A stretch of DNA of 57,423 bases from a virus. Both the position numbers and the translations under genes were made by a program. The notes below the pieces were generated by a model. It did not search any database. It saw nothing but the letters and a program-made list of their open reading frames with translations, and was not told where the DNA came from. Every line of letters starts with the position of its first letter. Positions within the stretch are counted from its first letter, which is position 1. Of this stretch, positions 1 to 57,423 are shown piece by piece. The stretch is from the IMG/VR virus record IMGVR_UViG_3300045988_081621. The stretch is one strand, 5' to 3'.

Positions 1-59
1 TATATTGTAATACATAAAACTATATTTGTCAATAGTTTTTTATAAAAATACATAAAAAA
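1..59 (-). promoter_or_regulatory. Conserved early-promoter cassette, copy 1 (identical to 57365-57423)
   Basis: Minus strand reads TTGACA (27-32), 17-nt spacer, TACAAT (4-9), with an A/T-rich upstream element. The same 59-mer occurs at 49196-49254 and 57365-57423. Transcription would leave the left edge, or enter the right end if the molecule is circular. Confidence 0.6.
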
Positions 60-90
60 TCCTCCTAGTATTTAAACTAAGAGGATTTTT
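53..90 (-). terminator. Rho-independent terminator closing the que/dpdA/clamp operon
   Basis: Arms AAATCCTC (57-64) and GAGGATTT (81-88) pair, with extra inner pairing TAGT/ACTA. On the minus strand the hairpin runs into a T-tract that is also the A-run of the promoter cassette. Confidence 0.6.
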
Positions 91-194
91 CCAGGAGGTA
101 AACGCAATGAACGAAAAGAACGGCTAAGAAACCTATCCTAATCTGTCACAGCTTTATTATAATACAGATTAATAATTTTGTAAAGTATATATGC

Positions 195-1289
195 TTATTC
201 AGATTTATTATCTAATTCTTCATCCTCAAGCAAAGCTATAACCTGTGTTACTTTTCCGCTTTCAATCTTCAAAGCATTTTCGTTTCCATAGCAAATCTTT
301 ACAGTATCGTCTGGATTAGCTTGCAACTGTTCTTTCAGCATTGGAATATCTACACAGCATACAAATGGTTCAAAATCCTTGCTTTCTACATAGTTAATAG
401 TCTCTGTTGAAGCATCCTTTTTACTATGAATATTGATACCCTTTCTTCCGAATGTGAAATATGCTCCATTCTTATCATAAGGCTCAATGAATAATGCAAG
501 TCTATCAAGTACGGATAAAAGTAAATCCTTTGGTACTTTGCAAGAAGATGTAAATGCTTCATCAAGATAAGCGTTTACTTCACTTGCTGGGAAATCTTCA
601 ATTCCTTCCATTAATGCACCATCAATAATAACATCTTCTGTCACAAACTGAATACTCGTTCTTCCTATAAAAACCACAATATCTTCCTTTGTATTTAGTG
701 TTAATAACTGCATCTGCTGAGCAGAAATAAGAATAGGATTTTCACAATCAAACATCTTAAATCCATTGAATGTGATAACATTTGCATCCGTACTAATAAC
801 AGTATCTCCGCAATAGTAACCAGTTAAAGCTGGATTCTCAAGTGTCTTTGCAAGTGCTGATTTATTGATATTATAAGCTTGCATAACACTGGAAAGTTTG
901 GTTGCACACTGTACATTTTTATCGTCCATCATCTTAATATCTGGGAATGAGATAAGTCCTTCCTCGTCTGAAATCAATGGAATCTTATAAGTTCCGTTTG
1001 CTTTTACAAAAAGTACATCATCTTTTACAGATAAGTCAATATCTTCTGAGGTTGTCTTTGCAATCAACTTTCCAAACTTATCGGCATCTACTGTAATGTC
1101 CATATCATCCCCAGCTACTTTGTCAATGATAATACATAATGTATTAGTCATATCTGTTGTAAGCAATCTCAACTTTCCATCTGATAATTTAATTCCAATC
1201 ATGGATGTAATAGGAATAAGATTATTAAATCCTGCTCCTTTGATTGCTTTGTTTACTGCTTCTTTCATTCTGCTTGTTACTACTTTCAT
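195..1289 (-). CDS. dnaN: DNA polymerase sliding clamp (beta-clamp, DnaN-like)
   Basis: 364 aa, the size of a three-domain beta clamp. N-terminal pattern GKLRLLTTDMTNTL resembles the DnaN domain I strand motif. RBS AAAGGAGG lies upstream of the ATG. Clamp-loader genes are present elsewhere in the window. The call rests on remembered family features only. Confidence 0.55.
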   Translation of the reverse strand: MKVVTSRMKEAVNKAIKGAGFNNLIPITSMIGIKLSDGKLRLLTTDMTNTLCIIIDKVAGDDMDITVDADKFGKLIAKTTSEDIDLSVKDDVLFVKANGTYKIPLISDEEGLISFPDIKMMDDKNVQCATKLSSVMQAYNINKSALAKTLENPALTGYYCGDTVISTDANVITFNGFKMFDCENPILISAQQMQLLTLNTKEDIVVFIGRTSIQFVTEDVIIDGALMEGIEDFPASEVNAYLDEAFTSSCKVPKDLLLSVLDRLALFIEPYDKNGAYFTFGRKGINIHSKKDASTETINYVESKDFEPFVCCVDIPMLKEQLQANPDDTVKICYGNENALKIESGKVTQVIALLEDEELDNKSE

Positions 1290-1301
1290 TTTGTTCCTCC
1301 T

Positions 1302-1874
1302 TTAATTTAAGTTCATTAATGAATAAGCTTCTTTTCTTAGTTCAACATTATCATTGAACTCACCTCTTATAGTAGCTGTCCTTGTCTTAGCTCCTCGACT
1401 CTTAATACCTCGTGCAGTCATACAGCTATGTTCTCCTTGTACAACTACTAATACATCATTTGAACCGGTTGCCATCTGTACAATCTCAGCAATATCTGAA
1501 CCTATTCTTTCTTGAAGCTGTAATCGCTTTCCAACCATATCAGCAATACGAGCAAACTTGCTTAAGCCTAATACTTTGCCATTCGGTATATAAGCGATAG
1601 AAACAGTCATGTTATACATAAGAGCTAAATGATGTTCACAATAACTAAATATTGGAATATCCTGTACAACAACTAAATCATTATTATCAGTATCAAAGCA
1701 TTTACAGAATTTATCTGCAATTTCTGCATTGGTATAATTCATACCTTCAAATACTTCTTCATACATCTTTGCCACTCTTTTTGGTGTATCTACAAGACCC
1801 GGTCTATCTGGGTCATCACCTAATGCAATTAATATTTCCTTGATTGCTTTTTCTATTCTGTTCTTATCAATCAT
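1302..1874 (-). CDS. folE: GTP cyclohydrolase I
   Basis: 190 aa with the [12 protein letters not shown] motif (CEHH zinc site) and QGEHSCM. Sits in a que gene cluster. Confidence 0.9.
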
Positions 1875-1876
1875 TC

Positions 1877-2521
1877 TTAAACACCTCTCTCATTTGGATT
1901 CCATATAATCTTATGTAACTGAATCTGAACTTTACAATCATACATCTTATGCTTTAATAGATACTGTACTATTTCTTTAGGTTCAATTTCACCAAATACT
2001 GGGCTAAAATATATCTGTGCTTGTGGATTATATTTCTCAATAACTTGTAATGCTTTATTCAAATCCTCCTGACTGCCTACAACAAATTTAAGCACATCAT
2101 TTGTGGATAATAATCTAAAGTTATGACAATCCATATGATTTTCCATACCACTTGAAGGGCATTTATAGTCCATTGTAAAGAATAAACGTGGACTTGCTGG
2201 AAATTTTCCAATGTACTGTGAGCCATTAGTCTCAATATTTACCCAATAACCTTTTTCTAATAGTATATCAACAAGTTTATTGATACCTGGATGTACAAGA
2301 GGTTCTCCCCCAGTTATTGTTACTGAATGAATACCTCCTCTTTCTACTGCCCCAACAATCTGTGGAATACTCATAATTGAATATCCTTCTCCCTCACACC
2401 CATATCGTGTATCACAGTATGAGCAATTCAAATTGCATCCAAATAATCTTATAAAGGTGGTAGGTAAGCCAGCTCGCTTACCCTCACCATCAATGCTTTT
2501 AAATATTTCTACTACTTTCAT
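1877..2521 (-). CDS. queE: 7-carboxy-7-deazaguanine synthase (radical SAM)
   Basis: 214 aa with the [10 protein letters not shown] radical-SAM CxxxCxxC motif near the N-terminus. Neighbours are queD and folE. Confidence 0.9.
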
Positions 2522-2524
2522 TTT

Positions 2525-2878
2525 TTAATCCTCCACATAAATAGCGATATTGCCTTCGCTCTCTTGAACTTCTACTTTATAACACTGACCAACTTCACAA
2601 ATAGCTGAAACTCTCTTGCATATCCATTTTGCCATATTCTCAGCAGTTGGATTAAGAGGATACACAACATCATTAATACAAGCATGGTCTAACTTATCGT
2701 GTATCTCTTTTTTAATTTTTGTAAAATCTACAATCATTCCATAATCAGTGAGCTTGTCCGATTTACAATAAACAGTAACAATCCAATTATGCCCATGTAA
2801 GTTCTCACACTTGCTGTCATAAGGGAGCTCTAAATGATGAGCCCCTGCAATTTCCATTCTTTTTGATACATAATACAT
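2525..2878 (-). CDS. queD: 6-carboxy-5,6,7,8-tetrahydropterin synthase
   Basis: HGHNW motif and AGAHHL. The start is moved to the ATG at 2878 (MYYVSK...), which has AGGAGG 8 nt upstream. The track ORF extends to 2911 inside queC. Confidence 0.85.
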   Translation of the reverse strand: MYYVSKRMEIAGAHHLELPYDSKCENLHGHNWIVTVYCKSDKLTDYGMIVDFTKIKKEIHDKLDHACINDVVYPLNPTAENMAKWICKRVSAICEVGQCYKVEVQESEGNIAIYVED

Positions 2879-2882
2879 ATCT

Positions 2883-3587
2883 TTAATCCTCCTGATACTC
2901 AATAGGGTCATTTATACCATTAGCTTCAAAAGCATGTCTTCTGTCTATACACGTACCACATTTACCACAAGCCTTCTCACCCCCATGATAACAACTCCAA
3001 GTTAATTCATAAGGTACACCTAAATCTAAACCTGTCTTCACCACACCTGCTTTATTCATATGAATAAAAGGTCTGTTGATATGAATCTTACCATAAGTTC
3101 CAATGTTAATTGCTTTATCCATAGCATCCGCAAATTCTGGAGAACAGTCTGCATAAGCTTCTCCAGCGGCATCATCTGCATGAGCTCCATAGAACACTTC
3201 TACCTCTTCTCCCGGGAAAAGACTATCGGCAAAAGCTGTTGCAATGGATAATAATAATCCATTTCTGAAAGGTACATAAGTACCAACTCTACCCTCTCCA
3301 TTCTGCTTAATCTGGTCTGCATAACTCATATCTAAAATTTCATCTTTAGAACCTTTAATAAGTGAGCAAACTTCTCCAGCATATTTCATTATATTAGATA
3401 TATCTTGTTCAATATGTCTAACACCATAATATTCTGCTATCTTCTTAGCACACTGTAGTTCTTTATCATGCTTCTGACCATAATATAAAGAAGCTGTTAT
3501 AACATTGTCTTTCCCATACTTATTTACTGCTATTGCTACACAAGTTGTTGAATCTACTCCTCCGGAGCTTAATACTAATGCTTTCAT
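2883..3587 (-). CDS. queC: 7-cyano-7-deazaguanine (preQ0) synthase
   Basis: 234 aa with the PP-loop LSSGGVDSTT and the C-terminal zinc cluster CGKCGTCIDR. Confidence 0.9.
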   Translation of the reverse strand: MKALVLSSGGVDSTTCVAIAVNKYGKDNVITASLYYGQKHDKELQCAKKIAEYYGVRHIEQDISNIMKYAGEVCSLIKGSKDEILDMSYADQIKQNGEGRVGTYVPFRNGLLLSIATAFADSLFPGEEVEVFYGAHADDAAGEAYADCSPEFADAMDKAINIGTYGKIHINRPFIHMNKAGVVKTGLDLGVPYELTWSCYHGGEKACGKCGTCIDRRHAFEANGINDPIEYQED

Positions 3588-3588
3588 A

Positions 3589-4077
3589 TTATTTTGTCCT
3601 TTCTAATGATAACTGGTCGAACTGTCTTTTTGTAACCATACACTCATAGCCTGACCCTGGTTTAGCATAATTAGCAAATGGTAATATAGAAATACCACCT
3701 CTAGGTAAGAAATTACCTTTTACTTCAATGTACTTAGGGTCCATTAATTTAATAAGGTCCTTCATAATGATATTAGTACAATCCTCATGGAAATCACCAT
3801 GATTTCTAAAACTAAATAGATAAAGTTTAAGCGATTTGCTTTCTACCATTCTTTTATCAGGAATATAGTTAATTATTATTTCTGCAAAATCAGGTTGTCC
3901 TGTTTTTGGGCATAAGCTTGTAAATTCAGGACATGTAAATGTTACCATATAATCATTATCCTGATGCTTGTTAATAAATGTCTGTAATACAGAAGAGTCA
4001 TAGTCATACTGATAATGTGTATTCTGATTACCTAGTAAACTCACTCCTTCTAATTCTTTTTTGTTTCTTCCTTCCAT
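3589..4077 (-). CDS. queF: NADPH-dependent 7-cyano-7-deazaguanine reductase (preQ0 to preQ1), unimodular type
   Basis: 162 aa with the catalytic Cys context [13 protein letters not shown] and the QueF motif [15 protein letters not shown]. Confidence 0.85.
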
Positions 4078-4157
4078 TTAAGAAGTCCTCCTTTATTTTT
4101 TAATATTTATTATAAAGGAGCAGGATGTCAGGTTATACATAACTGCTCCTTATAACC

Positions 4158-5141
4158 TTAAAATAATGACCTTTTATTATAACTTTGTCCAGTAAACTTA
4201 TAGTTGTCTGCCCATTTTTTTAAATAGATACAATTAGCAAGACTTCTTTCATAAACTTTATTGGAGAGGTCATCAAATTTTACTCCAATCTGTTCTATAT
4301 ATTCTCTTATATACTTTTTGGTAATAGCGTCTTGATTTACAAAATGGTCGGGAGAGTTTGTACGAGTTCCAAACCCTATAAGCGTATAACTCATCTCACC
4401 AGGCACTATATTAGGTTTAGGGATATACACAAATCCATATGCGGCTTTCTTAACCCAACCCGCTGAATCTGCTGACCAAAAAGGATATCTTTCAAGCAAA
4501 TATAATGAAGTCATGCCAAATGCATGTGTCTTGACATTTGGATTACTTGAGCTACCAATAATCTTAAACACTTTGTCCATAAAATCAATTTTTCCATTTA
4601 TATGAGAATCGTTTGCTGGGGATATTCCTATATATTCTATATGGTTACCTTTCGCATCTTTATATTCAAGCATGTTATTAAGCCACTTAAAATCTTCACC
4701 TTGATGAAATATAGGAAGTAACTTATTAACTTCTTTTATATGCTCTCTCATATATAAGTAATTCTCCCAACTTTGTCGAGGAGCTAGTAATACTTGTTGT
4801 CTAGTTTTAGGTTGCTTATATACACCAGGTATCTTATCCACTTGTGCTATTGCATTGCACCTAGTACTAATTGAATTAGCATAAGATATATAGTCATCAA
4901 CATCAATTTCTACACCTCTACTATGAGCCGCCCATGCTCCTGAATCTAAAAATATGTTATCTCTTCTTCTGCTTGATAACCAATTAGATATTGCTTTTCT
5001 GTCAGTTACTTGTGTGAATAACTTAAGTACATTATTGGCATCAAACCAATGTTGTAGATAATTACTAACGCCCCCCGCAAAATATAATCTAAAAGGTTCT
5101 TGACCACTATAGCAAGATTTTATAAATTGGGGATATATCAT
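4158..5141 (-). CDS. dpdA: DpdA-like tRNA-guanine-transglycosylase-fold enzyme, predicted DNA 7-deazaguanine transglycosylase
   Basis: 327 aa with FLDSGAWAAH, resembling the TGT/DpdA catalytic DSG motif. It lies immediately upstream of the complete preQ1 pathway. Overlaps the preceding ORF by ATGA. Confidence 0.65.
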   Translation of the reverse strand: MIYPQFIKSCYSGQEPFRLYFAGGVSNYLQHWFDANNVLKLFTQVTDRKAISNWLSSRRRDNIFLDSGAWAAHSRGVEIDVDDYISYANSISTRCNAIAQVDKIPGVYKQPKTRQQVLLAPRQSWENYLYMREHIKEVNKLLPIFHQGEDFKWLNNMLEYKDAKGNHIEYIGISPANDSHINGKIDFMDKVFKIIGSSSNPNVKTHAFGMTSLYLLERYPFWSADSAGWVKKAAYGFVYIPKPNIVPGEMSYTLIGFGTRTNSPDHFVNQDAITKKYIREYIEQIGVKFDDLSNKVYERSLANCIYLKKWADNYKFTGQSYNKRSLF

Positions 5142-5722
5142 ATCAACGCCTCCTTTTGAAAATCTAAGAGATATCTTATATTCTTAATATAATCACAATC
5201 ATATGATACATGATAACAATTTCCTAACGTATTATTTACAAATTTATGAAATGAAATTCCTTCGGGTAAGTTATCAACTTTTTCTCTCATATATACTGTA
5301 ACCTTTTTAGAAAGAACATCCACCTCAGCCAGTCTCTTTGGCTTTTCACTATTTGTCTTTATTGTGAGATAATTTCTATTTGTCTTATAAGGTACTTGAA
5401 CATACTCAGATAAAGAATCAATAATATGTGAAAGAATTAAGTCAATATTATTCTTTTTATTTTCTGATTTTTCGTTCTTAACAGAATGTCCATCCTCAAA
5501 TGGTGCAATCTTATTAATAACCTCTGGTTTTGATTCTTTAAGTTCTGCAAAATCAACATCACATTTTTTCCACCATCTTTTTATAGTTGATGAACAATAA
5601 GATAATTGCTTACCTTTTTTATCACCATTTAAAAATTCTATTGTATAAGTTTTAAATTTTTCATTAAACTCTAGTAATTTAATTAATGTTGTATTATCTT
5701 TCTTTGATATATAAGTTATCAT
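5138..5722 (-). CDS. Hypothetical protein, first cistron of the deazaguanine operon
   Basis: 194 aa counted from the ATG at 5722, with GGAGG about 10 nt upstream. Its stop overlaps the dpdA start (ATGA). Lys-rich middle region. No motif I recognise. Confidence 0.6.
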   Translation of the reverse strand: MITYISKKDNTTLIKLLEFNEKFKTYTIEFLNGDKKGKQLSYCSSTIKRWWKKCDVDFAELKESKPEVINKIAPFEDGHSVKNEKSENKKNNIDLILSHIIDSLSEYVQVPYKTNRNYLTIKTNSEKPKRLAEVDVLSKKVTVYMREKVDNLPEGISFHKFVNNTLGNCYHVSYDCDYIKNIRYLLDFQKEALI

Positions 5723-5764
5723 AATATGCATACCTCCATTGTTTATGTATCTGTTATCTTTAAC

Positions 5765-5805
5765 ATATTTGTATTGTAATACATAAAAAGGTATTTGTCA
5801 ATAGG
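5765..5805 (-). promoter_or_regulatory. Early-promoter cassette, copy 2 (drives the dpdA/que operon)
   Basis: Minus strand TTGACA (5796-5801), 17 nt, TACAAT (5773-5778). Shares the core attgtaatacataaaa...tttgtcaatag with the other copies. Confidence 0.7.
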
Positions 5806-5819
5806 AATTTCAATTTTTT

Positions 5820-8081
5820 TTAATTTATTTCTACTTCTTCACCATACCAGTTTTTAGTGAAATCCACATCACACCTGAATGGAAGTTTAATTAAATGAGT
5901 TGGGGCTGTTCGCATTAAATAAGAAAGTCTTTCTCCTGCTTCCTTTGCATTTTCAATAGGACATTCACCTATTACCTCATCATGGACTTGTATAAGCAGA
6001 TGGAAATCAAGCTCTTTCATTCTTTCATCATTATTTATTGCAATCATAGCCAGCTTTGTTATATCTGCGGCTGAACCTTGTACTCTTGCATTAACACACT
6101 GCCTTTCTGCCTGTGATATGAATCCACCATTATCTTTAATCTTAATTCCTTGAGATAAAGCACTTTGGATTATGTCATTTTTCTTTTTCCAACCAAAAGC
6201 CTTTTGAAGCTGTTTAGTATAGTTATCCTTTACTTTTTTTGGTACTTCTGTTGATACTTCACTTCCAAATGCTAATGGGTCAAAGTTAGTGACTTTTCCA
6301 CTATAAGTAAACTCATAGGGTTCCAATTGCATATCATGTAAATGTCTTCTTCTACCCCATGCAGTAGTAACATATCCTTCAGTTCTTGCCATTTCTTGTG
6401 AATCTTCAATAAACTTTCCGAGGGCTGGGAATGAAGCTATAACCTTATCATATATGGCTTGAGCTTCCTTAGTAGATACCCCAAGCTGTTCTGCGATTGA
6501 AGGAATCTGTCTACCATACAAAATTCCAAGGACTATGCTCTTAGCCTGACCTCTTCTTTCCTTACCTGCTGGGTTTACTGTTCCATCTTCTCTAAACTCT
6601 TTGCATTCTTCATAAGGCTTATGAAATGCAAGTGCGGCTATTGTAGCATATATATCCTTACCATTTATAAAGGCTTCCTGCATTTTCTTGTCGGCAGATA
6701 GATGAGCTGTAACCATCGGCTCCTGCTGACTGAAATCCGAGCCTATAAGCACATATCCATCTTGAGCTTTGAACATCTGTCTAATCTCTTTATTATGTGA
6801 AGGAATATTCTGGAGGTTTGGGTCCTGTGAACTGAATCTTCCTGTCTTAGCTCCATATTGATTATAACTTGCGTGTACTCTTCCATCTTCCAATGCAATT
6901 TCAGGCATTTTATCAATGTAAGTTCCAAGTAACTTTTCCACATTTCTCATTCCCAAAATAGCTTCACAAAGATTCTTTTCTTTACCTTGTGCAAAGTGCT
7001 TTAGAATATCTTCACCTGTTCCTCTAGGTGCTTTTTTATCCGGACTTTCTAATCCTAAAATATCATAAAACAATATTGCAAGCTGAGTAGGGCTTGATAA
7101 TGATATAGGGTCTGATAACTTATTATTAGGATTTTTCATCTTGTAGTTATCAATTTCATTTTGATACATTGCTATTGCTTCATCAGCTTGCTTTTTTCTT
7201 TCTTCTCTAATAGCATGATATTTTTCATGTAGATTTTTACAAACATCAAAATCCAAACATACCCCTCTATCTTCCATATCTGCTACAACTGAAATCAAAG
7301 GCATTTCAATATTCTTAAATACATTATAAGGTCCAGCTAATACTCGTCTGTTTAATAATGTTTTTTGATACTCGTATAATTCATATGTCTTTATAGGGTC
7401 ACCTGCCGCATATAGATAAGCTGTTGATATTGGAATATTATCGAAAGTAACACCGTTAAACAAAGAATCAAAGGTCAATGATTCTGTATCTTTACTATCA
7501 CAATATTTAAGATGTAAATCTTTCAATCTGTGACTTTCTTCTTCATCTATACAGTATGCCGCTAACATTGTATCCCAATAAGGTTTGAAATCTATTCCAA
7601 GTGTCTTTCTACATACTCGGATATCATATTTTGCATTATGGAATATCCATCTAATATCATTATGAAACTCTTTCATAATCTTTGATACTGTCTGTTCGTC
7701 TAACTGGTCTTTAGTTCTTACACCTGTTATATAAGATTTATGATTGATTGGGATATACGCCGCTTTTTGTCCTGGAGTATAAATACATCCACCAACTATA
7801 TCTACAAGTAACGGGTTTAATCCTGTTGTCTCTGTATCTAATGCACCTTCCCCAACTTGCTTCATTTCTTTCATATATTCATATAGTTGGTCAGGTTCTC
7901 TGATAAGAATATAATCATCTTTATGAATTGCTAATTTTTGATTAGCAATAGCAACTATAGATTGTACTTGAGCGGCTAGATTATTTCCGCCGCTCCTAAT
8001 ACTTGTTCTATTTGTTACTGTTTTGGATTTCTTGATTATATTCTTATCATTGCTTTTTGGTCTTGCAAATGATAATGCCAT
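5820..8081 (-). CDS. polA: Family A DNA polymerase with 3'-5' exonuclease domain
   Basis: 753 aa. Exo I LDTETTGL, motif A SDFSQQEP, motif B RRGQAKSIVLGILYG, motif C LIQVHDE. Confidence 0.9.
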   Translation of the reverse strand: MALSFARPKSNDKNIIKKSKTVTNRTSIRSGGNNLAAQVQSIVAIANQKLAIHKDDYILIREPDQLYEYMKEMKQVGEGALDTETTGLNPLLVDIVGGCIYTPGQKAAYIPINHKSYITGVRTKDQLDEQTVSKIMKEFHNDIRWIFHNAKYDIRVCRKTLGIDFKPYWDTMLAAYCIDEEESHRLKDLHLKYCDSKDTESLTFDSLFNGVTFDNIPISTAYLYAAGDPIKTYELYEYQKTLLNRRVLAGPYNVFKNIEMPLISVVADMEDRGVCLDFDVCKNLHEKYHAIREERKKQADEAIAMYQNEIDNYKMKNPNNKLSDPISLSSPTQLAILFYDILGLESPDKKAPRGTGEDILKHFAQGKEKNLCEAILGMRNVEKLLGTYIDKMPEIALEDGRVHASYNQYGAKTGRFSSQDPNLQNIPSHNKEIRQMFKAQDGYVLIGSDFSQQEPMVTAHLSADKKMQEAFINGKDIYATIAALAFHKPYEECKEFREDGTVNPAGKERRGQAKSIVLGILYGRQIPSIAEQLGVSTKEAQAIYDKVIASFPALGKFIEDSQEMARTEGYVTTAWGRRRHLHDMQLEPYEFTYSGKVTNFDPLAFGSEVSTEVPKKVKDNYTKQLQKAFGWKKKNDIIQSALSQGIKIKDNGGFISQAERQCVNARVQGSAADITKLAMIAINNDERMKELDFHLLIQVHDEVIGECPIENAKEAGERLSYLMRTAPTHLIKLPFRCDVDFTKNWYGEEVEIN

Positions 8082-8093
8082 ATAATTTCTCCT

Positions 8094-8363
8094 CTAGTTT
8101 TTTATACAAAAATTTTCCCACTTCTTATAAGCGTCAACATATGTTTCGTTTTTATCCCCATTATAAGTAATTTCATAATACATGCCATCAGAAACCGTTG
8201 TGCTAACAAGTGCTTTATTATTCTGTAAAATCTTACAACTCCAAACTACAAAGACATCATTCTTTGTGATTTCTGACCTTTTCCCATCGGATTTATCGTG
8301 ATGTTTGTTAAAGTAATCAACTACAATGTCCTTGCATAAATTTAAAAATGTATCATTTCCCAT
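8094..8363 (-). CDS. Hypothetical protein
   Basis: 89-aa ORF tightly packed between polA and the SSB-like gene. Confidence 0.55.
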   Translation of the reverse strand: MGNDTFLNLCKDIVVDYFNKHHDKSDGKRSEITKNDVFVVWSCKILQNNKALVSTTVSDGMYYEITYNGDKNETYVDAYKKWENFCIKN

Positions 8364-9051: not shown

Positions 9052-9183
9052 ACTTCTTTTTCCTTTCTTAATTGGTGTTAGTTGTTTTAGTTTTTGACAG
9101 TATTCCCAGCTTTATTTCTGTCTATCCCAATGAACGCATTCCATGCATATCCGGTCCTTTTTCTTTCGTCTGCCAGGATATAA

Positions 9184-9255
9184 CAACCCTAGTTGGATTC
9201 GAACCAACAAATGCAGGAGTCAAATTCCTGTGCCTTACCTTTTGGCTATAGGGCT
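9184..9255 (-). tRNA. tRNA-Gln (anticodon UUG)
   Basis: Hand-folded 72-nt cloverleaf. Acceptor AGCCCTA/TAGGGTT, D arm GCC..GGC, anticodon stem CAGGA/TCCTG with loop ATTTGAC, T arm GTTGG-TTCGAAT-CCAAC. Confidence 0.8.
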
Positions 9256-9326
9256 ATAAGAGATGTAAATTATGTGTATATAGCTTATATTCAGTTTCAA
9301 CTCTTGATATACACTACATCTCTAAT

Positions 9327-9661: not shown

Positions 9662-9700
9662 ATATATTGTAATACATAAAAATGAATTTGTCAATAGATT
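9662..9700 (-). promoter_or_regulatory. Early-promoter cassette, copy 3
   Basis: Minus strand TTGACA (9689-9694), 17 nt, TACAAT (9666-9671), with A/T-rich upstream sequence. Confidence 0.7.
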
Positions 9701-13540: not shown

Positions 13541-14353
13541 CTAAAAATGCTTTATGCTCGGGTCATTATTTTTTATCAAGTTACGATAATTTTCTCTGCC
13601 CTCATCTGTTGTGGTGCCATTTAATATTAACTCCTGAGGTAATCGGTTTAATGGGTTTGACTTCACCTTCAACCAATCTGGGTCTATATTCATATATCCG
13701 TTATCAAGAGATAGCTGAATAGCATTTATCTGAGTTTTTGTACTTACTTTTGCTAATCTTGTTAAAATAGCATTTACTTTATCATCTGTAACCATTTTAT
13801 GGTTTTCTAAAAGATTTCTAAAAAATCTACTTAAAAGCTCTATCACTTCATCTTCTAAATCATATTCTAAACATTTCTTTTCTATAGATTCGATTTTAAT
13901 ATCAATCTTAGTTTTCTTTTTAGAATTTTTCTTTATATTATCTTTAATACTTAATTTATTAGTATTTAATTTATTAGTATTTAATTGTACGTGCTTTTCT
14001 ACACGTTGAATTTCTATGGGTAGATTTTCTACACCTTGTTTTTTACCTTCTTGTTTTGGTTTCTCATATATATTGTAAACATATTCAATTCTACCTGATT
14101 CTGTCTTATCAGGCATTATTTTATCAATTTTAACATAACCGAATTGTTGTAACTCTTTCAAAGCTGATTTAATAGCAGTTTCATTTTCTTTGCAAATAGC
14201 AACTAATCCAGCTATTGAGTAATCCCAGTTATCAGGAAGTGAAAGCATTAAAGATAATAGCCCTTTAGCTTTTAATGACATATCCTTTTCTTTAAAATGA
14301 TAATTGCTCATAACTGTATAGTTCTTAGTTTTCTCTACTCTTATAACTGACAT
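13541..14353 (-). CDS. Replication initiator / replisome organiser (N-terminal HTH)
   Basis: N-terminus YTVMSNYHFKEKDMSLKAKGLLSLMLSLPDNWDYSI is typical of phage and plasmid replication-initiator HTH domains. Followed by loader and helicase genes. Confidence 0.6.
   Translation of the reverse strand: MSVIRVEKTKNYTVMSNYHFKEKDMSLKAKGLLSLMLSLPDNWDYSIAGLVAICKENETAIKSALKELQQFGYVKIDKIMPDKTESGRIEYVYNIYEKPKQEGKKQGVENLPIEIQRVEKHVQLNTNKLNTNKLSIKDNIKKNSKKKTKIDIKIESIEKKCLEYDLEDEVIELLSRFFRNLLENHKMVTDDKVNAILTRLAKVSTKTQINAIQLSLDNGYMNIDPDWLKVKSNPLNRLPQELILNGTTTDEGRENYRNLIKNNDPSIKHF
13951..13986. repeat. 15-bp tandem repeat (2.4 copies) inside the initiator gene
   Basis: ttaatttattagtat at 13951-13965 and 13966-13980, then ttaatt. 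Encodes NTNKLNTNKL. Flanked by very A/T-rich sequence. Confidence 0.8.
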
Positions 14354-14369
14354 ATACGATTCTCCTTTT

Positions 14370-14421
14370 TAAAATAAAAATAAGTTATACAAATTGAATG
14401 GCGGTTCAATGTGTATAACTT
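14370..14421 (-). terminator. Intrinsic terminator or attenuator hairpin in the leader of the initiator gene
   Basis: Arms aagttataca (14382-14391) and tgtataactt (14412-14421) with inner pairing ttgaa/ttcaa. On the minus strand it is followed by ATTTTTATTTT, then the RBS AAAAAGGAG. Confidence 0.55.
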
Positions 14422-14506
14422 ATCTAATTACTGATATTAAGTTGTTACAGATATTAAGTCCGCCAACCTAATATCAGCTGTTGCGTGTCTCTCACGCTGT
14501 ACATTT

Positions 14507-14535
14507 ATTATAACATACGAATAAATAAATTACAA
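14507..14535 (-). promoter_or_regulatory. Sigma70-type promoter (not of the repeated family) upstream of the initiator leader
   Basis: Minus strand TTGTAA (14530-14535), 17 nt, TGT-TATAAT (extended -10; TATAAT at 14507-14512). Confidence 0.5.
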
Positions 14536-14538
14536 TAC

Positions 14539-15114
14539 TTAATTGATAGAATTTAATTCCTCAATCTGCTTATCTACTTCACAATTAAGTTTAGCCCATA
14601 ACTGTTCTCTTACATCCTCAATTTTCTGTTTTGTCTGTGATACATCCCACTCTTCCTCAGCTATAAATTTAAAATAGTTATCTCCTTTCTTAACTGTAGC
14701 ACCGGATGTATATCTCATAGATACCACTTTGATGTCATTAGTTGTCTCAACTGCTTTCTTCTCTTCTTTAACTTTAACAGCTTTATCCTCTTTTTTGTTG
14801 ATTGTTTCTTTGTTTTTTGAGACAGATTTTACATTTTTGTTATTAGCTGTATTGTTGTTACTCTTTTCAGTTTTACTTGTTTCTTCGACTGATTTTTCTA
14901 CGTTGTTTGTTGTCTCTTCAACAGATGCATCTTCTGTCTCCTCAACAGGGGGATTCATAACCTCTTCATTAGTATCTGTCTCCTCTTTCCCTGCTTCGTA
15001 GCCTGCACACTCAGTACATGGAATAGAATTGCCATCTACCTCCATTGTACATCCATCACAATTCTTACAATACTCGTCTGTTGGGTCTCCAGCATATTTA
15101 CAAATTTTACTCAT
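14539..15114 (-). CDS. Hypothetical protein with Cys-rich N-terminus and acidic/Lys-rich low-complexity centre
   Basis: 191 aa. Contains CKNCDGC...CTEC. Confidence 0.55.
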   Translation of the reverse strand: MSKICKYAGDPTDEYCKNCDGCTMEVDGNSIPCTECAGYEAGKEETDTNEEVMNPPVEETEDASVEETTNNVEKSVEETSKTEKSNNNTANNKNVKSVSKNKETINKKEDKAVKVKEEKKAVETTNDIKVVSMRYTSGATVKKGDNYFKFIAEEEWDVSQTKQKIEDVREQLWAKLNCEVDKQIEELNSIN

Positions 15115-16365: not shown

Positions 16366-16412
16366 TAATATTGTAATACATAAAACTATTATTGTCAATA
16401 GTTTTATGTATT
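16366..16412 (-). promoter_or_regulatory. Early-promoter cassette, copy 4 (palindromic subtype)
   Basis: TTGACA (16393-16398), 17 nt, TACAAT (16370-16375). The -35 is bracketed by the inverted repeat tacataaaac / gttttatgta. Confidence 0.7.
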
Positions 16413-18490: not shown

Positions 18491-18535
18491 TATATTGTAA
18501 TACATAAAACTATTATTGTCAATAGTTTTATGTAC
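18491..18535 (-). promoter_or_regulatory. Early-promoter cassette, copy 5 (palindromic subtype)
   Basis: TTGACA (18517-18522), 17 nt, TACAAT (18494-18499). Same tacataaaac / gttttatgta inverted repeat as copy 4. Confidence 0.7.
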
Positions 18536-43551: not shown

Positions 43552-43610
43552 TATATTGTAATACATAAAACTATATTTGTCAACACTTTTTTATAAAAAT
43601 ACATAAAAAT
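43552..43610 (-). promoter_or_regulatory. Early-promoter cassette, copy 6
   Basis: TTGACA (43578-43583), 17 nt, TACAAT (43555-43560). The leader sequence is shared with copy 7. Confidence 0.7.
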
Positions 43611-49195: not shown

Positions 49196-49255
49196 TATAT
49201 TGTAATACATAAAACTATATTTGTCAATAGTTTTTTATAAAAATACATAAAAAAA
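49196..49255 (-). promoter_or_regulatory. Early-promoter cassette, copy 7
   Basis: TTGACA (49222-49227), 17 nt, TACAAT (49199-49204). The 59-mer is identical to 1-59. Confidence 0.75.
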
Positions 49256-57364: not shown

Positions 57365-57423
57365 TATATTGTAATACATAAAACTATATTTGTCAATAGT
57401 TTTTTATAAAAATACATAAAAAA
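57365..57423 (-). promoter_or_regulatory. Early-promoter cassette, copy 8 (identical to 1-59)
   Basis: TTGACA (57391-57396), 17 nt, TACAAT (57368-57373). Confidence 0.75.

Follow-up and report, generated by a model that had tools for sequence, protein, structure and literature searches.

The window analysed here is the whole 57,423-nt stretch of the viral record IMGVR_UViG_3300045988_081621, whose exact 59-bp direct repeat at both ends (1-59 and 57365-57423) indicates a complete circular or terminally redundant assembly and thus a whole phage genome of ~57,364 bp. The genome has a G+C content of 33%, is 94% coding and carries every gene on the minus strand, among them an operon predicted to exchange guanine in the phage's own DNA for a 7-deazaguanine base. 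A sequence-only reading of the window had described seven tightly packed minus-strand cistrons behind a promoter at 5773-5801, and an open reading frame (ORF) check recovered all seven at the same positions, together with every protein motif it had quoted and a sigma-70-type promoter on the minus strand that a motif scan matches perfectly to TTGACA-N17-TACAAT. In 5' to 3' order the operon encodes an orphan protein of 194 residues (5138-5722), a DpdA-type 7-deazaguanine DNA transglycosylase of 327 residues (4158-5141), QueF, a unimodular NADPH-dependent preQ0 reductase (3589-4077), QueC, the 7-cyano-7-deazaguanine (preQ0) synthase (2883-3587), QueD, a 6-carboxytetrahydropterin synthase (2525-2878), QueE, a radical-SAM 7-carboxy-7-deazaguanine synthase of the Clostridial type (1877-2521), FolE, a GTP cyclohydrolase I (1302-1874), and a phage DnaN-like sliding clamp (195-1289). 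The clamp gene begins 12 nt after FolE, and beyond it lies a strong intrinsic terminator with a 16-bp stem and a T run (54-91, minus strand) that closes the unit, such that the transcription unit comprises eight cistrons with the clamp as the last of them, where the sequence-only reading had also placed it.

The cistrons overlap or abut behind a single promoter and before a single terminator, the orphan ORF and the DpdA gene sharing an ATGA overlap and DpdA and QueF being separated by an 80-nt spacer. The start of the orphan cistron is most likely at 5722 (MITYISKK), as had been assumed, given its better Shine-Dalgarno spacing and its use in homologues, and that of QueD is most likely at 2878, which yields the 117 residues found in relatives, rather than at 2911, where the longest ORF reaches. 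Directly upstream of the operon is a family-A DNA polymerase, PolA (5820-8081, minus strand). Related viral contigs and loci brought into the comparison are identified by L-numbers (L003, L012 etc.).

Biosynthetic genes for preQ1

Gene families were scored against curated NCBIfam/Pfam cut-offs, and all five biosynthetic identities proposed from the sequence pass them, with Pfam E-values between 1e-30 and 1e-64. FolE has a Pfam E-value of 4.6e-64 and reaches 242.7 bits on NF006826 (cut-off 162). QueE has 275.6 bits on TIGR03963 (cut-off 260.1), QueC has 164.1 bits on TIGR00364 (cut-off 150.3) and QueD is marginal at 89.9 bits against a cut-off of 89.25 on TIGR03367. The sequence CENLHGH in the latter protein fits the CxxxHGH signature, as opposed to the LxxxHRHxF of DpdL, and this identifies it as QueD and not as a DpdL decarboxylase. 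Against TIGR03139, the equivalog for preQ1 synthase, QueF reaches 174 bits (cut-off 86.9); it is 64% identical to the QueF of Streptococcus phage Dp-1, and keeps both the catalytic Cys56 and the QueF motif E79-Y86 (ESKSLKLY), which are invariant with the QueF proteins of Dp-1 and Flasso. The QueF motif reportedly has the general form E(S/L)K(S/A)hK(L/Y)(Y/F/W). The four preQ0 genes, FolE, QueD, QueE and QueC, share their operon with the DpdA gene.

The DpdA transglycosylase

The product of 4158-5141 matches phrog_887 at 2.1e-43 and is 43% identical to Dp-1 gp7 over 95% of its length (E 7e-73), 42% identical to the homologue from Bacillus phage Flasso and 28-32% identical to the DpdA proteins of CAjan, 9g and Iggy (32% and E 1e-18 for CAjan). 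An AlphaFold2 (AF2) model built with 49 homologues has a predicted local distance difference test (pLDDT) score of 90.8 and a predicted template-modelling (pTM) score of 0.88, and the top 50 PDB matches returned by Foldseek are all tRNA-guanine transglycosylases (TGT; probability 1.0, TM-score 0.47-0.56). The predicted fold is thus a TGT-like TIM barrel. Sequence and profile searches of the PDB with the same protein gave only a non-significant match (E 0.2) to AcrIC9 (PDB 8hjj, 8g9t), covering DpdA residues 69-125 (~4767-4937) and probably due to chance.

Four positions, D66 (in LDSGAW), D102, H146 and D225, are invariant among the 49 homologues, and their spacing resembles that of the catalytic D95, D130, H181 and D256 in bacterial DpdA (bDpdA), whose crystal structure is known. 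D66 and D225 are still invariant once E. coli TGT joins the multiple alignment, in which D66 aligns with TGT D89 and D225 sits in the DMFDC nucleophile motif; a direct comparison of the DpdA profile with E. coli TGT by hhalign aligned the DSGG motif only, the full mapping coming from the multiple alignment. TGT enzymes are the best structural match, with conserved catalytic aspartate and nucleophile motifs, but they share just 10-14% identity with the phage enzyme, which matches no TGT hidden Markov model (HMM), lacks the zinc subdomain and has DNA as its probable substrate. The bacterial Dpd system, made up of DpdA and the ParB-like ATPase DpdB, likewise uses a TGT-fold transglycosylase with three catalytic aspartates to exchange guanine in DNA. 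It differs in that bDpdA depends on both DpdB and ATP, contains a zinc site (CxCx2Cx22H), inserts only preQ0 and forms part of a restriction-modification island, whereas this phage has neither the zinc motif in its DpdA nor a DpdB.

These comparisons bear on whether the genes might serve tRNA queuosine metabolism, raising Q-tRNA levels for the translation of phage genes, instead of modifying DNA. The TGT fold and a database annotation as 'queuine tRNA-ribosyltransferase' would suit such a role, but by PHROG, BLAST and fold the enzyme falls among phage DpdA proteins rather than tRNA-directed TGT, so that the clustering which the sequence-only reading had named as grounds to reject the assignment of 4158-5141 was not observed, and deletion of phage dpdA abolishes DNA modification. 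The enzyme also has no match to the TGT models of Pfam or NCBIfam, the sole phage tRNA, Gln(UUG), is outside the Q-family tRNAs, and the C-terminal tag of the enzyme is also found on DNA methyltransferases. Phages of this kind moreover lack QueA, QueG and QueH (Hutinet et al. 2019). A tRNA role is, on this evidence, highly improbable.

Predicted product and function of the module

A complete GTP-to-preQ1 pathway alongside DpdA supports the prediction of dPreQ1 in the genomic DNA, and the earlier proposal to this effect is strengthened by homology to the module of Dp-1. FolE, QueD, QueE and QueC would convert GTP to preQ0, QueF would reduce preQ0 to preQ1, and DpdA would then put the 7-deazaguanine base in the place of guanine in the phage genome by a TGT-like double-displacement mechanism, with D225 as the nucleophile and D66 as the general acid/base. 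DNA containing dPreQ1 would be expected to withstand host restriction, 7-deazaguanine base swapping being a known anti-restriction strategy that is seen in the pneumococcal phage Dp-1. In phage CAjan, deletion of dpdA abolishes the modification, and the gene is needed for both modification and restriction resistance (Hutinet et al. 2019).

Dp-1 is the closest cultured relative of the module. Its gp1-gp7 encode QueF, QueC, QueD, QueE, FolE, QueT and DpdA, and its DNA contains 3389 dPreQ1 per 10^6 nt (~1.7% of G) and no dG+ (Hutinet et al. 2019), in agreement with what the sequence-only reading had stated for Dp-1. The two phages have the same enzyme set and predicted product, a DnaN-like clamp just downstream, a DpdA that ends in LF (QRRLF in Dp-1) and a genome that avoids GATC, and they also share UvsX, Cas4, a ligase-like protein and a clamp loader, of which one subunit in this phage (46368-47369, minus strand) is 47% identical to Dp-1 gp17. 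They differ in that the gene order is reversed, DpdA coming first in this phage and last in Dp-1, in that this phage has the orphan first cistron and no QueT transporter, and in that its clamp is co-transcribed right after FolE. Similarity at the DNA level is not detectable between the two, and a megablast search with 1-8100 found no DNA-level relative among cultured phages. The DpdA1 systems of the Queuovirinae and their relatives (9g, CAjan, Iggy) are a more distant parallel, having a homologous DpdA (28-32%) that ends in ...QELF, a co-located preQ0 pathway and a dpdA gene directly upstream of that for a processivity factor, while differing in the absence of QueF, in their product (dPreQ0 or dG+), in their Proteobacteria hosts and in a clamp family without detectable similarity to the one found here.

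We place the probability that the genome, complete as it is, carries a functional Dp-1-type 7-deazaguanine DNA-modification module at roughly 0.8, and the supported classification of the operon as a new member of the known Dp-1-type dPreQ1 system would add a metagenomic and probably Firmicutes-infecting phage to the small set predicted to carry this base. Several points weigh on the other side. Besides dPreQ1, both dPreQ0 and a derivative are candidates for the final base, and only ~1.7% of G is modified in Dp-1 itself, modification levels among phage DpdA systems ranging from 0.1% to 100% of G. The DpdA assignment rests on PHROG, BLAST and fold, as the protein has no sequence-level match in Pfam, NCBIfam or the PDB, TGT models included. 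The zinc site CxCx2Cx22H of TGT and bDpdA is not present, although its absence also from the DpdA proteins of Dp-1, Flasso, CAjan, Iggy, RHEph06 and ZHS marks it as a feature of the phage clade. Lastly, close relatives have deleted DpdA, QueF and QueC, which indicates that the module is dispensable in some settings.

A module that modifies DNA with a final base other than dPreQ1 is the first of these concerns in its strongest form, and it appears unlikely. The base would be dPreQ0 if QueF were inactive or DpdA specific for preQ0, dG+ if QueF worked as an amidinotransferase of the QueF-L type, or a base derivatised further if the orphan first cistron supplied another activity. QueF and QueF-L are hard to separate by sequence, and whether reduction takes place on the free base or on DNA is unclear (Hutinet et al. 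2019); DpdA has undergone repeated shifts in substrate specificity, an uncharacterised orphan protein is co-transcribed with the module, and related loci carry extra GNAT, ArcS-like or DpdM-like enzymes. Against this, QueF scores at twice its equivalog cut-off with its catalytic Cys and NADPH-binding QueF motif kept, its close counterpart in Dp-1 belongs to a phage with dPreQ1 and no dG+, and the orphan ORF has neither the CxxxCxxCC motif of DpdM nor a methylase, formylase or acetylase domain and is found beside methylases in loci without DpdA.

In L008 (8557-8997), L009 (4216-4656) and L013, all of which carry QueF, a GNAT acetyltransferase lies directly upstream of DpdA, and this combination may yield N-acetyl-dPreQ1, a product outside the eight known deazaguanine derivatives.

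The C-terminal LF motif and the sliding clamp

The DpdA of this phage ends in ...NKRSLF-COOH, and residues 313-327 have no secondary structure in the AF2 model, where pLDDT falls to ~51 in the last block; the KRSLF tail (4161-4175, minus strand) is accordingly placed in a predicted disordered segment and is a candidate clamp-binding motif. A [KR][KR]xLF C-terminus, with basic residues at -4 and -5, is present in 107 of 118 DpdA homologues (43-97% identity). Elsewhere in the genome, the sole other real ORF with a basic-LF ending is a DNA-ligase-Ia-like protein (PF22745; 44767-45150, minus strand) with the tail KKKGKLF.

The motif extends well beyond DpdA. In 80 viral contigs retrieved through the clamp (L012-L091; clamp identity 29-99%), coding-strand ORFs end in LF more often than in any other dipeptide: 123 of 1947 do so, where 6.6 would be expected from composition, as against 1 of 554 on the opposite strand. 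The LF-tailed proteins span ~14 unrelated families, nearly all of them DNA-acting, including DpdA, N6/N4 and C5 methylases, other S-adenosylmethionine (SAM) methyltransferases, ArcS-like DUF5591, a CxxCxxCC (DpdM-family) protein, ligase-Ia-like proteins, DUF6884, HNH endonuclease and primase. In these phages the canonical clamp client is the family-A polymerase, and the PolA of this phage begins MALSF (8067-8081), a conserved LF-type motif at its extreme N-terminus; the corresponding sequence is MxQKGLF in members of the Dp-1-like clade, and elsewhere MSGLF, MPLF or MADLF.

A second, deeply divergent DpdA1 clade, sampled as 80 CAjan-type loci, has a similar arrangement. There DpdA ends in [VI]QELF, with LF within the last five residues in ~73 of 76 cases, and makes up 62 of the 64 ORFs with an LF ending, and the polymerases begin ...GLFW. 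In 72 of the 80 loci a processivity factor is encoded directly downstream, whose sequence has no detectable similarity to the clamp of this phage, and in 39 of those no more than 9 nt separate its start from the dpdA stop. Such proximity is widespread, the gene for a clamp or processivity factor being at most a few genes away from dpdA in Dp-1, MS1, Flasso, CAjan, Iggy, RHEph06, phiSM and ZHS. In Cellulophaga phage phiSM (L095, 2466-4303) DpdA has no tail, and it is DpdM and its overlapping ParB-like neighbour that end in VNLF; three loci of Bipper-type mycobacteriophages have a DpdA with no LF tail and no clamp nearby. The bacterial beta-clamp consensus is QL(S/D)LF at C-termini, and many of the tails fit Q-x-x-L-F, among them those of Dp-1 (QRRLF), Flasso (QGKLF), phiSM (QVNLF) and Iggy/CAjan (QELF).

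These patterns lead us to suggest, with moderate confidence, that DpdA is recruited by docking its disordered ...KRSLF tail on the phage's own DnaN-like clamp. By this route the enzyme would reach newly replicated phage DNA, and base exchange would be post-replicative and directed to nascent phage DNA at the fork. Docking on a co-transcribed clamp would also account for the widespread synteny of dpdA and clamp genes, and, if true, tethering would explain how DpdA separates phage from host DNA without a DpdB-like partner. The same comparison gives somewhat better than even odds to a broader proposal, that DpdA together with methyltransferases and ArcS-like, DpdM-like and ligase-like enzymes are clients of the phage clamp through a terminal LF motif, and is similarly, if modestly, in favour of the forms this motif would take, namely [KR][KR]xLF or QELF at the C-terminus and, where the polymerase begins, (Q)xGLF or ALSF. 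Precedents exist in T4 alpha-glucosyltransferase, which binds the gp45 clamp, and in eukaryotic DNMT1 with PCNA, where a DNA-modifying enzyme on a sliding clamp couples modification to replication; chemistry and clamp type are different in those systems, and the DpdA-clamp contact is proposed from motifs and synteny only. No mention of a clamp, processivity factor or replisome was found in the principal deazaguanine papers, a full-text literature search returned no paper connecting DpdA with a clamp, and a phage-host interactome paper has no Dp-1 gp7-gp10 pair among its entries.

Four observations count against the docking step. The canonical Gln is missing from the tail of this phage, though present in many relatives; nearly all loci have both tail and clamp, with three clamp-less Bipper-type DpdA loci for comparison; the loci are phylogenetically related, with the result that raw LF counts overstate independence; and in T4 the clamp interaction is not the main determinant of modification level. 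It is possible, at somewhat less than even odds, that the [KR][KR]xLF tail does not bind the clamp at all and is instead intrinsic to DpdA, a degradation or packaging signal, or a docking site for another hub such as the single-stranded DNA-binding protein (SSB), the clamp loader or a helicase, the adjacency of the clamp gene reflecting mere placement among replication genes. The comparative, sequence-level nature of the clamp proposal, the basic tail type of this phage, which usually lacks the Gln of QL(S/D)LF, and the co-inheritance of clamp and tail in related phages, which confounds their co-occurrence, all leave room for this explanation. Presence of the tail on ~14 unrelated enzyme families, however, argues that it is not intrinsic to DpdA, and in two independent clades the LF motif recurs at the start of the polymerase, the canonical clamp client; many tails match Q-x-x-L-F, the same arrangement is found with two clamp families without detectable sequence similarity, and the clamp-less Bipper has no tail. 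Docking on the clamp would offer a directly testable answer to the question of DpdA targeting, in the form of replication-coupled modification, and the LF tail a simple signature for finding new DNA-modifying enzymes in clamp-encoding phages.

Several proteins stand out by this signature. DUF6884 proteins (PF21818), which have a faint YaaA-like similarity, carry a basic-LF tail in 14 loci (L017 429-845, L084 4558-4998, L049 8612-9115 and ~11 further loci), and the tag flags them as probably DNA-acting clamp clients. The clamp-encoding contigs L040 (4957-5733) and L047 (4959-5735) each encode a 258-residue CxxCxxCC protein (PF03692, YkgJ/DpdM-family) with a ...RRLF tail, a candidate dPreQ1 methylase carrying the docking tag. 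L010 (3520-6388) has two DpdA paralogues of 285 and 364 residues followed by an ArcS-like DUF5591 protein, all three ending in basic-LF, in a cassette that also includes a dCMP deaminase. In the transporter-type relative L006, a PAPS-reductase-like protein and an N6/N4 DNA methylase end in basic-LF (3202-3792 and 13822-14736), and the stretch from DpdA to the clamp includes genes for a DUF4406 protein and an SNF2-like helicase. In phiSM, DpdM is a validated DpdA partner, and the processivity-factor gene lies 2 kb downstream.

The orphan first cistron

In the model of the orphan protein, a Lys-rich linker that is disordered (56-88) joins an SH3-like domain at the N-terminus (residues 1-55) to an alpha/beta domain at the C-terminus (89-194), and the two domains are shuffled among relatives. 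No sequence match was found in Pfam, NCBIfam, PHROG or the PDB, and the model has no significant fold match in the PDB; its significant matches in BFVD are to uncharacterised viral or DUF5655 proteins only, with a faint resemblance to the MotA C-domain. An exhaustive profile search over 1.84 billion representatives returned 79 matching clusters, none with a known domain. Identification as DpdM (DUF3109/YkgJ, CxxxCxxCC), DpdN (a formyltransferase) or DpdL (a QueD-like T-fold) was rejected, there being no family matches and no Cys motif.

The orphan ORF is next to DpdA in most layouts, and its adjacency to DpdA in five layouts raised the possibility of a DpdA-specific accessory. This was rejected as 8 of the 22 loci carrying it have a methylase or nothing in place of DpdA, which assigns the cistron to the slot between PolA and the clamp and not specifically to DpdA. 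It had been listed by the sequence-only reading among the elements of an unexplored configuration, and in this respect it is new without being particular to DpdA. A role in DNA binding or in regulation would be no more than a guess.

A variable modification island between PolA and the clamp

The interval from PolA to the clamp, 195-8081 in this phage, is hypervariable across the 80 clamp loci. Fifteen loci hold DpdA together with a Vut_1/QueT transporter and a preQ0 set like that of Dp-1, six hold DpdA with a transporter only, five DpdA with QueD, QueE and FolE and no QueC, ~10 a methylase only and four nothing, with GNAT or ArcS-like variants in further loci. QueF is present in four of the 80, and the exact layout of this phage occurs once (L012). 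A DpdA allele of 67% identity, differently placed, is found against backbones that are 92-96% identical. By this comparison the interval is a swappable DNA-modification island, and, to the degree that the clamp proposal holds, probably one of hot-swappable, clamp-tethered anti-restriction cassettes, a view we favour with modest confidence.

Among the variants is a 2.8-kb in-frame deletion, relative to 2736-5537, in three contigs of ~53 kb that are 93-97% identical to this phage (L003 10001-10372, L004 3499-3870, L005 3521-3892). The deletion spans a 25-nt microhomology (VDFTK[IV]K) and fuses the N-terminus of the orphan ORF to the C-terminus of QueD, removing DpdA, QueF and QueC and leaving QueE and FolE orphaned. 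The existence of such relatives, and of others in which the PolA-clamp slot is empty, could be taken to mean that here, too, the module is no more than a remnant, decaying or without function; this is very unlikely here, since all eight tightly packed ORFs are intact, as are the catalytic motifs, the promoter and the terminator. The near-isogenic relatives constitute natural comparators, with the module deleted, the DpdA allele swapped, or a precursor transporter, an ArcS-like enzyme, a GNAT protein or a DNA methylase as replacement.

GATC avoidance

The near-absence of GATC noted in the sequence-only reading is borne out, with one site observed in the genome (at 39523) against 167 expected, and GGCC is likewise scarce (three against 27 expected). 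Avoidance of GATC as a property of this configuration was ruled out, however, as the site is also missing from Dp-1 (0 against 26 expected) and Flasso (0 against 41) and is avoided in DpdA-less relatives, which makes it a lineage trait that exists beside base modification and does not depend on it. L010 is an exception, with 17 sites against 36 expected. Of the configuration that had been called unexplored, therefore, neither this trait nor the adjacency of the clamp, shared with the eight phages named above, is distinctive. What is new here, as judged from comparison of sequences, is the conserved clamp-binding-like tail of DpdA, the matching motif of the polymerase and the swappable modification island.

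Regulatory elements and other features

The operon promoter is one of a family of ~8 copies in the genome whose spacers are almost the same, against a chance expectation of 1.0 match. The copies lie at 4-32, 5773-5801, 9666-9694, 16370-16398, 18494-18522, 43555-43583, 49199-49227 and 57368-57396 and present an almost invariant 29-nt sequence, TTGACAAATATAGTTTTATGTATTACAAT. Conservation of the spacer suggests a phage-specific regulatory element in addition to the sigma-70 hexamers.

One tRNA gene is present in the genome, a tRNA-Gln(UUG) at 9183-9256 on the minus strand.

The spacer between DpdA and QueF contains a stable hairpin (4109-4156, minus strand; dG -22.9 kcal/mol, z -3.1). A preQ1 riboswitch of classes I-III was considered for this spacer and rejected, a search of positions 1-6000 giving no Rfam match at E <= 1, and the element is best described as a plain hairpin. 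It is nearly identical in L008 and L009, where it lies at the cassette boundary and the upstream gene differs, and its 3' arm could alternatively pair with the Shine-Dalgarno sequence of QueF.

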